64,000 nt of DNA, from NCBI RefSeq assembly GCF_051903065.1, contig NZ_CP178438.1. One strand, written 5' to 3'. Position 1 is the stretch's first letter, and each line of letters starts with the position of its first letter. This document shows, one piece after another, positions 10,596 through 26,178 of the stretch. A program made the translations under genes and the position numbers. The notes below the pieces were generated by a model. It saw only the letters and a list, made by a program, of their open reading frames with translations, did not search any database and had not been told where the DNA came from. This DNA comes from Escherichia coli (GTDB taxonomy: Bacteria > Pseudomonadota > Gammaproteobacteria > Enterobacterales > Enterobacteriaceae).

Positions 10596-10725
10596 TGGGG
10601 ACCTTGTTGGTTTTGTGTTTAACAATATTTATACAAGCACAGCTTTACAGGGGAGACAATGGAAAATTTTTCAGCAAGGGAAAATTGAGGGGTTGATCAC
10701 GTTTTGTACTGAATTGCAGATAACA

Positions 10726-10865
10726 AAAAACCCCGCCGGAGCGAGGTTTCGTCAGTCGCCTGCGGCTGGTAACCGCAAAGCACACTGTATTATGTCAACA
10801 CTGAAAGTATACGTGTTCCGCGCAGAACGCGCAATTTCGGCACGAATTTTGACGTATTTAGTGCA
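10726..10865 (-). ncRNA. istR: IstR antitoxin sRNA region (istR-1/istR-2), approximate bounds
   Basis: Divergent from tisB; contains a 21-22-nt segment (10779-10806) that is a direct repeat of the tisAB leader segment 11038-11066, so its transcript would be antisense to that mRNA; minus-strand terminator near 10726-10750. Confidence 0.5.
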
Positions 10866-22731: not shown

Positions 22732-24413
22732 CCGATACTCCAGAAGAGCACCGCCAGTAATTGGGGGGTGATAATGCGCAGGAACATCACTAACGGATAG
22801 ACAGTGGCGTAAGAGAGCGCCGCCGCACCGCTGGTTGGATGAAGATTATTAGCAAACGCCAGCGCCGGAGGATCGGTCATGGAACCTGCCAGCATCCCGC
22901 ACATGGTCAGGTAATTCATTTTGGCTAACATCCGCGCCAGAATGCCAACAGTAATCAGCGGAACGGCGGTGATCAGGGCACCATAACCAATCCAGCTTAG
23001 CCCTTCGCCATTGACCAGGGTATTCACAAAATCCCCACCAGATTTCAGACCAACGACCGAGAGGAACAGCACGATCCCCAGCTCCCGCAGCGCGAGGTTG
23101 GCACTTGGCGGCATAAACCAGTACAGCTTGCCGATACTGCCGATACGCCCGAGGATCAACGCCATAATCAGCGGACCGCCCGCCAGCCCCAGTTTCAACG
23201 CGGCCGGGAATCCCGGCACAAAGACGGGAATAGAACCTAACAATACGCCTAGCCCGATGCCAATAAACACAGGCAGCATCTGAACCTGTTGCAGTTTTTG
23301 CTGCGCATTCCCCAGCACATTGGCAACGGCATCAATTGCGGACGGACGCCCCACCAGATTGAGGATATCGCCGAACTGCAGGCTGATATCGCCACTGGCG
23401 ACCAGTTCGACCCCGGCACGGTTCAGGCGCGAGATAACAACGTCATAGCGTTCTTTAAAATGCAGGTCGCGAATACGCTTACCAAGCACGTTTTCATTGG
23501 TGACCACCACACGCTCGACGCGCAAATCAGTGCCTTTCGTGGACAGCGAAGTATCGACCTCCTGACCAATCACCAGTTGCGCATTATGTAAATCCGCTGG
23601 CTGCCCCACCAGATGCAGCAAATCGCCCAGTTGGATAATGGTATCTGGCGAAGGAACTTTTAGGGTTTCTTCGCGTTTCAGACGCGAGCAGATAATTTTG
23701 TCGCCGTTGAGAATCGGTACATCTTTAATGGCTAAATCATGCAGGTTAGGGTTCTCAACGCGAATATTGATAGTCCTGATCAGCGCGCCGCCATTGGTGC
23801 GTGAAGACTCGTGCTGCTGGGCTTCTGTCTCGACATTGACGCGGAAAATAACCCGCAACATCCACATGGTGAACAATATCCCGCAAATGCCGAATGGATA
23901 CGCCATCGCGTAACTCATCCCCATCTGATCGACCATTTCCATTGGTGTACCCAGGTCGCGCAAGATCTGCTGCCCTGCCCCCAGCGCTGGCGTATTGGTT
24001 ACCGCACCGGAGAAAATCCCCAGCACTACCGGCAGTGGAATATCAAACAGTTTATGCAGGATGGCGGTAACCAGACCACCGATGATGACGATCAAAACAG
24101 CAAACAGGTTGAGGCGTAATCCGGAGACGCGCAATGAGGCAAAGAAGCCCGGCCCTACCTGAATCCCGATGGTATAAACGAACAGGATCAGGCCAAATTC
24201 CTGAATAACATGCAGCATATCGCTACTTAATGTCATCCCCGCCTGAGAAACAAAATGGCCGACGATGATCCCACCAAACAGCACGCCGCCAATACCTAAT
24301 CCTATGCCGCGAAATTTGACGTTGCCGATAAACAAACCGACGACTGCCACCAAAGCCAGAATACTGACCGTTAATGCTATATCACTCATCGTCCATTTCT
24401 CTTGAGATAACAT
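22728..24413 (-). CDS. yidE: Putative transporter with duplicated membrane domains and central TrkA-C/RCK-C-like domains
   Basis: 561-aa ORF, AAE-transporter-like architecture. Confidence 0.85.
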
Positions 24414-24540
24414 TTTAATTGCTACGGATTATGGCTGAATCGGTGAAGCAGATTTGCCTTATAGCGCACATTATCACGGGAAAGAACGTGCCGAAATATC
24501 TTAAACAGTCGAAATTTAACGCATTGTTGAAGAAGAAAGA

Positions 24541-24569
24541 CAAAAAAAGCCCCACCAGAATGGTGGGGC
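24541..24569 (-). terminator. Rho-independent terminator after ibpB
   Basis: gccccacca-gaa-tggtggggc hairpin with T-run on the minus strand. Confidence 0.65.
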
Positions 24570-24584
24570 AAAGAGAATAGCTAG

Positions 24585-25013
24585 TTAGCTATTTAACGCG
24601 GGACGTTCGCTGATAGCGATACGCTGCGCTGCGATGGGTTCAGGCTCATTACGAATTAAATCAATATGCAGTAAACCGTTTACGAAAGTTGCGCCAGAGA
24701 CTTCCATATTTTCAGCCAGCGTAAAGCTCAGGCTAAATGGCTGATTCATAAGCCCTTGATGCAGCCATTTTTTCTCTTCTTTTGGCTGCTCCGGCGTGCC
24801 TTTTACGCTCAGGCGCGTACCTTCCAGTTGAATCTCTAAATCTTCCTGACGGAAACCTGCCAGCGCAAGGGTAATGCGGTAGTGGTTATCGTCGCTTTTC
24901 TCAATGTTGTACGGCGGGAAGCTCTGGCTTTCACCGGCGTTTTGCAGTGCGTTGGCCAGTTTGTCAAAACCGATCCATTGACGCATCAGTGGGGATAAAT
25001 CGAAGTTAGGCAT
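24585..25013 (-). CDS. ibpB: Small heat-shock protein (alpha-crystallin family)
   Basis: 142-aa ORF, paralogue of ibpA; start at ATG 25011-25013 with AGGAG 8 nt upstream. Confidence 0.92.
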
Positions 25014-25125
25014 AGTCATTTCTCCTTCTAAGAAGCGAGTAAGTACCTGCAAATCCGAAGATTCGCATATGCTCCCTGACGGCGAGCATGGAGATGTCAG
25101 GCCGCGCCAGGCGCGCCTTAGGGAA

Positions 25126-25539
25126 TTAGTTGATTTCGATACGGCGCGGTTTTTTCGCTTCCGGAATCACGCGTTCGAGATCGATATACAGCAAACCATT
25201 TACCAGGTTAGCGCCACGAACATGAATGTTCTCAGCTAACTGGAATTTGCGTTCAAAGTTGCGTTCAGCGATGCCCTGGTACAGATAGGTGCGCTCTTTT
25301 TGTTCGTCGGCGTGAGCACCTTTCACCACCAGCAGATTATCCTGGGCGGTAATTTCCAGTTCGCTCTCAGCAAAACCAGCCACAGCGATAGCAATGCGGT
25401 AATGGTTTTCGTCTACCAGTTCAACGTTATACGGAGGGTAGCCGCCATTACTCTGGCTCTGGTTGTTTTCTAAGTGGTTAAACAAACGGTCAAATCCAAT
25501 AGCAGAACGGTAAAGCGGGGATAAATCAAAGTTACGCAT
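25126..25539 (-). CDS. ibpA: Small heat-shock protein (alpha-crystallin family)
   Basis: 137-aa ORF; start at ATG 25537-25539 with AGGAG upstream. Confidence 0.93.
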
Positions 25540-25640
25540 AATCAATAGCTCCTGAAATCAGCGAGAATGTAAGACCTTCCACAATGGACAGGTCAGGTAG
25601 CCAGAACACCCATCAGGCGCGTCCTCATCGGCTACGATGT

Positions 25641-25671
25641 AAAAATGGGTCTGGAAATGAACTTTTCAAGC
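25641..25671 (-). promoter_or_regulatory. sigma32 heat-shock promoter of ibpAB (-35 CTTGAAAA, -10 ACCCATTTTT)
   Basis: Minus-strand read of 25641-25671 matches sigma32 consensus elements; long 5' UTR (25540-25640) follows, consistent with an RNA thermometer. Confidence 0.65.
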
Positions 25672-25844
25672 CTTATCAGCGGACTTTTTTTTGCAGTTTA
25701 TGGTCTATTGCATAGACTGAGGGGGCAGCACGAAACGTTAAAGTGCGATAGCCGCCACAGTGCGACGTAATGATGATGTTATTTTCAGCAAGGGATCGCT
25801 ATAACTCATCAGGCCAACACCCACGATCAACAGATGAATTTATT

Positions 25845-26177
25845 ATGATAAGAAATGTGTTGTTAGCGTTCATGATATGCAGCGGAATGACATTACTCGG
25901 AGGATGCTCCAGCGTGATGTCCCATACCGGGGGGAAAGAAGGAACGTATCCCGGCACCCGCGCCAGCGCCAGCATGATTGGCGACGATGAAACCAACTGG
26001 GGCACTAAGTCGCTGGCGATTCTCGATATGCCGTTTACCGCTGTGATGGACACACTTTTACTGCCGTGGGATGTGTTCCGCAAAGACAGCTCGGTGCGCT
26101 CACGCGTTGAAAAAAGCGAAGCCAACGCGCAAGCCACCAATGCGGTTATTCCACCGGCCAGAATGCCTGATAACTGA
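25845..26177 (+). CDS. yidQ: Small lipoprotein
   Basis: 110-aa ORF from ATG 25845 with lipobox LLGGC. Confidence 0.8.
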   Translation: MIRNVLLAFMICSGMTLLGGCSSVMSHTGGKEGTYPGTRASASMIGDDETNWGTKSLAILDMPFTAVMDTLLLPWDVFRKDSSVRSRVEKSEANAQATNAVIPPARMPDN

Positions 26178-26178
26178 T

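Follow-up and report, generated by a model that had tools for sequence, protein, structure and literature searches.

The stretch of the Escherichia coli chromosome analysed here (64,000 nucleotides; the window) carries, with a probability of about 0.95, the native control region of the ibpAB small heat-shock operon, in which three layers of control are combined: a sigma-32 promoter, an RNA thermometer of the Rfam ROSE_2 family and feedback by IbpA itself. Our own evidence for this reading consists of the identity with K-12, the membership of an Rfam family, the fold that is predicted, and conservation and covariation across genera. For sigma-32 dependence, temperature-dependent translation and IbpA binding, we rely on published work with the identical sequence. 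The control region is intact, ordinary and already described. The original prediction, which had called it known biology in an intact region, was correct. The control region is identical to that of K-12 MG1655.

A 1.5 kb segment around the control region was matched in 5419 of 5426 complete E. coli genomes, with 100% identity in three of them and at least 99% in 4331. At the matching place, RefSeq annotates yidQ, a ROSE feature, ibpA, ibpB and yidE. The identity with K-12 MG1655 is base-for-base from the promoter to the ibpA start, and continues past the -35 element by at least 110 nt in the upstream direction and, downstream, well into ibpA. All three differences from K-12 lie downstream of the control region: a synonymous change in ibpA (GGT to GGC), a 1-nt insertion in the spacer between ibpA and ibpB, and an R2P substitution in IbpB. 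On the minus strand, the ibpA coding sequence (25126..25539, 137 aa) encodes a protein identical to K-12 IbpA. Its start is the ATG at 25539-25537, as annotated in identical genomes, whereas the mechanical list of open reading frames gave an upstream TTG at 25545. The ibpB coding sequence (25013 down to 24585, 142 aa, minus strand) begins with the ATG at 25013, and the intrinsic terminator of the operon lies at 24549..24569 on the same strand (GCCCCACCA UUC UGGUGGGGC, then a U-run). Several weak Rfam matches at 24541-24675 (Hrs1, anti-hemB, PrrF and others) were below their gathering scores and correspond to the ibpB terminator hairpin, and the plus-strand open reading frames of 41-43 aa that cross the leader (25584-25715 and 25645-25770) are mechanical and unsupported. 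Elsewhere in the window, Rfam matches above gathering score were obtained for istR (10725-10854, minus strand, 150 bits), for AsdA, the antisense RNA of dnaA mRNA (36504-36584, plus strand, 102 bits), and for ES036/CssrF (30985-31027, plus strand, 48 bits).

The sigma-32 consensus consists of a -35 element, CTTGAAA, and a -10 element, CCCCATNT, spaced by about 13-15 nt, and is said to go back to Cowing 1985 and Nonaka 2006. Upstream of ibpA, the minus strand reads CTTGAAAA at 25670-25663 and ACCCATTTTT at 25650-25641. Within these strings, CTTGAAA at 25664..25670 agrees with the consensus at 7/7 positions and is followed, 14 nt past it, by the sigma-32-type -10 element CCCATTTT at 25642..25649. 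Compared with the consensus as aCCCATtT, the -10 element agrees at 6/7 specified positions, and the spacer to that 8-mer is 13 nt. The promoter had originally been placed at 25641-25671 on the minus strand, which is right to within one base, and about 100 nt upstream of the ibpA start; the ATG lies 101 nt past the end of the -10 string. This was the sole exact match of the promoter pattern in the window: CTTGAAA-N14-CCCATNT occurs once in 64 kb, against 0.08 expected, and 7 of 100 shuffles contained at least one match. On the window alone, the probability of such a match by chance is about 0.07, which is only suggestive. Comparative evidence across Enterobacterales is decisive in establishing the promoter as real beyond chance. 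The -35 core TTGA.A was invariant in all 59 Enterobacterales ibpA upstream regions aligned, as was the A of the -10 element, and the flanking C and TT were at least 90% conserved at a fixed spacing. The ibpAB operon has been reported to be sigma-32 dependent (bioRxiv 10.1101/2020.04.20.050740, PMC4370416), and SELEX with the RpoH holoenzyme gave a peak in the spacer between ibpA and yidQ (PMC5493296). A promoter scan of positions 24300-26300 returned no sigma-70 promoter.

The geometry of the promoter suggests that ibpA transcription starts at 25636-25634. The published numbering, in which the bulged G of the thermometer is G71 (PMC2896394) and the element is described as 96 nt long (PMC6096418), would fit a +1 at G25632 if the AUG is counted. 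Whichever of the two is taken, the leader is 93-97 nt long (25540..25636 at its longest, minus strand). No mapped start site was found in the supplements of two start-site papers, from which ibpA is absent. Further upstream, a tract of eight A residues (25685..25692, minus strand), about 50-57 nt from the proposed start, resembles an UP element and may act as one. The A-rich run, which follows a TGC, is conserved in most Enterobacterales ibpA upstream regions, and is A7 in some E. coli genomes.

The original prediction had proposed that this long 5' UTR might sequester the AGGAG Shine-Dalgarno (SD) sequence in a ROSE-type thermometer. The leader proved to be a full-length match to Rfam ROSE_2 (RF01832; 25533..25605, minus strand; model positions 1-73 of 73), with a score of 100.4 bits against a gathering score of 65 (E = 3e-23), and a scan of the whole window returned the same match. 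Of hairpin I, the matched segment includes the 3' side; it also takes in hairpins II and III together with the SD, the AUG and the beginning of the coding sequence. It lies directly upstream of ibpA, a gene for an alpha-crystallin-type protein, and so stands in the expected small-heat-shock context. No other ROSE model exceeded its gathering score in the ibpA leader (ROSE_3, 20.8 bits against 43), and the element is of the enterobacterial ibpA type and not of the type described by the rhizobial ROSE1 model.

Folding of the 100-nt leader through the AUG gave three hairpins with a minimum free energy (MFE) of -34.4 kcal/mol (z = -2.8 against dinucleotide shuffles, 2 of 200 of which folded equally well). 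Hairpin I (25597..25635, minus strand) is predicted to be stable, with an upper stem AGGACGC / GUGUUCU arranged around a bulged G, a CC/GG pair and a tetraloop. Hairpin II (25573..25594, minus strand), GACCU-G-UCC / GGA-AGGUC, also has a bulged G and appears in the Rfam consensus structure, in the fold and in the covariation; its core, CUGUCC...GGAAGG, is conserved in sequence. Hairpin III (25549..25565, minus strand), CUC-G-CUG AUUU CAG-GAG, is the thermometer core. In it, the anti-SD motif UCGCU (25564-25560), with G25562 bulged, pairs with the SD AGGAG (25553-25549), which ends 9 nt before the ATG. This pairing is found both in the Rfam consensus and in the MFE fold, where the ROSE pairs reach a probability of 0.95 or more at 37°C when the leader is folded by itself. 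ROSE-like thermometers are defined by a U(U/C)GCU motif (PMC3669281) that pairs imperfectly with the SD and contains a bulged G (PMC3669281, PMC6096418), and UCGCU is one form of it. Such thermometers have two to four hairpins, stable ones on the 5' side and a labile one at the 3' end, an arrangement that the predicted fold shares. The proposed comparison with the ROSE consensus therefore came out as a match, and the outcome that would have told against the prediction, a UTR with no SD-sequestering structure, was not what we observed.

We investigated the conservation of this structure by scanning one genome per species for the N-terminal coding pattern of IbpA, which yielded 120 loci. From these, 58 distinct upstream regions of the Enterobacterales type were aligned with the window, giving 59 sequences. 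In this alignment, all five measures for the whole structure exceeded those of the shuffled control and of every slid control. The upper stem of hairpin I was paired in 96% of cells, with compensatory changes at 4 of its 7 pairs, and hairpin II was 91% paired with three compensatory pairs. The hairpin III core was 99.4% paired and had no compensatory pairs, its positions being invariant or showing wobble changes only; thus, covariation neither proves nor disproves the anti-SD/SD helix. Two parts of the structure were poorly supported, namely the basal stem of hairpin I (38-63% paired) and the two outer pairs that Rfam assigns to hairpin III (51% paired). Within E. coli, the 97-nt leader was identical in 4231 of 5417 complete genomes. 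The two natural leader variants that were inspected, C25569G and C25597U, both spare the anti-SD/SD core: the first affects the outer helix of hairpin III, which is weak, and the second turns a G-C pair into G-U.

These results bear on the most sceptical reading, that the strings resembling a promoter and hairpins arose by chance in an ordinary untranslated spacer and have no regulatory role. The promoter pattern does arise in about 7% of shuffled windows. However, this reading is opposed by the Rfam E-value of 3e-23, by -35 and -10 cores that do not vary and compensatory changes that occur in 58 other species, by the near-identity across about 5400 E. coli genomes and by the published experiments on the identical sequence. 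We give chance next to no credence, and the conservation and covariation data already contradict it.

The original prediction had proposed folding the 5' UTR at 30°C and 42°C as a check. The SD was sequestered in the fold, but the nearest-neighbour model gave no switch between the two temperatures. For the leader alone, the MFE structure was the same from 20°C to 50°C, with hairpins I and II persisting throughout, and the SD was almost as likely to be paired at 42°C (probability 0.96) as at 30°C (0.99). The predicted free energy of hairpin III was -5.6 kcal/mol at 30°C, -4.6 kcal/mol at 37°C and -3.8 kcal/mol at 42°C. The outcome of the folding depended on the length of coding sequence included. 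With 15 nt of coding sequence, a weak competing fold that leaves GGAG in a loop became the MFE structure at 20-37°C, and the probability of the ROSE pairs was 0.13-0.32. When 33 nt were included, the ROSE pairs were again dominant (0.6-0.75). Nearest-neighbour models leave unscored the non-canonical pairs known in ROSE hairpins. In-silico melting between 30°C and 42°C is only weakly informative here, and we did not take it as a refutation. The same conclusion has been reached for ibpA in published work, in which its computed melting could not be distinguished from that of ordinary mRNAs (PMC2896394).

The competing fold raises the question of whether the SD might be controlled by pairing with the first ibpA codons (CGC/GCG of AUGCG, and UCAG/UUGA) and not by the ROSE hairpin. 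Although this fold is the MFE structure when 15 nt of coding sequence are included, its energy advantage is just 0.1-1 kcal/mol, it loses its place once 33 nt are included, and it is compared by a model that does not credit the ROSE hairpin with its non-canonical pairs. It would also leave GGAG unpaired, so translation would not be repressed, and both the Rfam consensus and the 99.4% pairing in 59 species favour the ROSE hairpin. Structure probing of the K-12 leader reportedly found AGGAG protected and UCGCU paired at 30°C (PMC3669281, bioRxiv 10.1101/2020.04.20.050740). We therefore consider control by the coding fold very improbable.

For the function as a thermometer, the evidence comes from published experiments on the K-12 leader, whose sequence is identical. 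In a bgaB fusion, the E. coli ibpA thermometer gave a 4-fold induction between 25°C and 42°C (PMC3669281, citing Waldminghaus 2009), and deletion of the bulged G71 abolished thermosensing (PMC2896394).

The ibpA leader is also an operator for translational self-repression by IbpA, a layer that was absent from the original prediction. Oligomeric IbpA binds the ibpA 5' UTR and represses translation (bioRxiv 10.1101/2020.04.20.050740, PMC10474464, PMC8155344). It is released from the leader when it is sequestered into aggregates, and it represses ibpB translation as well (bioRxiv 10.1101/2020.04.20.050740, PMC8155344). Mutations in stem-loops 1-3 disturb the repression (bioRxiv 10.1101/2020.04.20.050740, PMC8155344), and residues Y34, R93, R97 and K98 of IbpA are needed for mRNA binding and self-repression (PMC10474464). 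All four residues are present in the IbpA of the window, and the leader is identical to the one tested. It is possible, though we think it rather unlikely, that the leader is mainly such a protein-responsive operator, an aggregation sensor working through IbpA, and that melting of hairpin III is minor in vivo. The computed melting of the SD is slight and not distinguishable from that of ordinary mRNAs (PMC2896394), deletion of IbpA or the presence of aggregates strongly de-represses a leader-gfp fusion at constant temperature (bioRxiv 10.1101/2020.04.20.050740), and hairpins I and II carry invariant blocks beyond what pairing needs. Against this stand the 4-fold induction of leader fusions by temperature and the loss of thermosensing on deletion of the bulged G, both cited above, and the two mechanisms have been described as cooperating and not as exclusive.

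The spacer between ibpA and ibpB, which is the ibpB leader, lies at 25014..25125 on the minus strand, exactly where a second AGGAG-containing leader had been predicted. Four hairpins are predicted in it. Next to ibpB is an anti-SD hairpin analogous to that of ibpA (25022..25039, minus strand), CUC-G-CUUC UUA GAAG-GAG in the fold, with UCGCU, a bulged G and the SD GAAGGAG. Its AGGAG is at 25026-25022, 8 nt before the ibpB ATG. The hairpin motif was found in 43 of 43 ibpB leaders from other species, against none expected in shuffles, while no Rfam ROSE model matched within 25014-25125 at E-values up to 1. The ibpB leader is thus ROSE-like in its predicted arrangement, with a UCGCU/SD hairpin and a bulged G, and is not a member by model score. 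Its function as a thermometer and its repression by IbpA have been published (bioRxiv 10.1101/2020.04.20.050740, citing Gaubig 2011).

Two of the differences from K-12 fall in and next to this leader. The insertion is a G at about 25114, in the first of the four hairpins (GGCGCGCC, against GGC-CGCC in K-12), and is predicted to make the perfect 7-bp hairpin longer and bulged. Only 3 of 5417 complete genomes have the insertion, and across the 1.5 kb searched all three have the same sequence as the window. Codon 2 of ibpB (25010-25008, minus strand) is CCT (Pro), where K-12 has CGT (Arg). Of 5417 complete E. coli genomes, 47 have this substitution, and many of the 47 are O145:H28; it also occurs in the type strain of Escherichia albertii (L007), and other genera have Arg. 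A sigma-54 promoter for ibpB has been reported (PMC4370416), but nothing convincing was found in the ibpA-ibpB spacer. The best sigma-54-like candidate upstream of ibpB, TGGTAAATGGTTTGCT, lies within the 3' part of ibpA (25205-25190, minus strand) and has the GG-N10-GC core and 9/12 consensus positions.

Taken together with the published work, the region would operate as follows. Sigma-32 RNA polymerase would start transcription from CTTGAAA-N14-CCCATTTT, and the mRNA would rise as sigma-32 accumulates. The leader of about 95 nt would form three hairpins, the two on the 5' side stable and the one at the 3' end only marginally so. In this last hairpin, UCGCU with its bulged G would pair with AGGAG and limit 30S binding at low temperature. 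With rising temperature, the 3' hairpin would open gradually, as in a zipper-type RNA thermometer of the ROSE_2 family. Oligomeric IbpA would bind the same leader, repress translation and promote decay of the mRNA, until protein aggregates titrate IbpA away and lift the repression. From the same transcript, ibpB would be translated through its own leader, which has the analogous anti-SD hairpin and would also be repressed by IbpA.

The closest known system is the K-12 ibpA RNA thermometer (ROSE_2; Waldminghaus et al. 2009, cited in PMC3669281), from which the control region in the window does not differ. The founding member of the group, ROSE1 of Bradyrhizobium japonicum hspA, shares the U(U/C)GCU/SD pairing, the bulged G, the 3'-proximal hairpin and the position in a small-heat-shock leader, but has four hairpins and a different Rfam model, whereas the ibpA leader has three hairpins and an unpaired start codon. 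The short ROSE-like thermometers of Pseudomonas ibpA (PMC3669281) precede an orthologous gene and have the same anti-SD motif; unlike the enterobacterial leader, they are much shorter, with two hairpins, and lack the enterobacterial hairpin I with its GCC-N4-GGG. Across alpha- and gamma-proteobacteria, U(U/C)GCU was present in the last 71 nt (65 nt before the ATG and 6 coding bases) of 116 of 118 ibpA-like upstream regions. Many non-enteric ibpA-like regions have a short two-hairpin form, AUAUUGCU...GAGGAUAU, as in Pseudomonas. The known ibpB thermometer (Gaubig et al. 2011, cited in bioRxiv 10.1101/2020.04.20.050740) has the same 3' hairpin, CUC-G-CUUC/GAAGGAG, as the spacer in the window, which differs in carrying the extra G in its first hairpin.

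One further feature is common to the two leaders. A hairpin with GCC-N4-GGG occurs in hairpin I of the ibpA leader (25618-25609) and in the second hairpin of the ibpB leader (25083-25074), both on the minus strand, and in each a covarying stem surrounds a bulged G that does not vary, a CC/GG pair and a loop of four bases. All 59 Enterobacterales ibpA leaders contained GCC-N4-GGG, as did 34 of 43 ibpB leaders, where about 2-4 would be expected by chance. No RNA-binding motif is known in IbpA. How IbpA recognises its mRNAs has been called an open question (PMC10410725). The hairpin is a candidate, if a doubtful one, for a sequence-specific element recognised by oligomeric IbpA or by an RNase that works together with it. 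Just as well, the hairpin could be left over from the tandem duplication that gave rise to ibpB and be retained only as a folding scaffold. It was absent from rpoH, a third IbpA target, between -244 and +300, which lowers the idea of a general mark of IbpA targets.

A textbook three-layer stress switch is thus confirmed as intact in this strain. As a discovery this matters little; as a positive control, it is a case of a real regulatory element recognised from sequence alone. The GCC-N4-GGG hairpin, present in both of the leaders that IbpA represses, offers a concrete target for mutagenesis directed at how IbpA picks its mRNAs.
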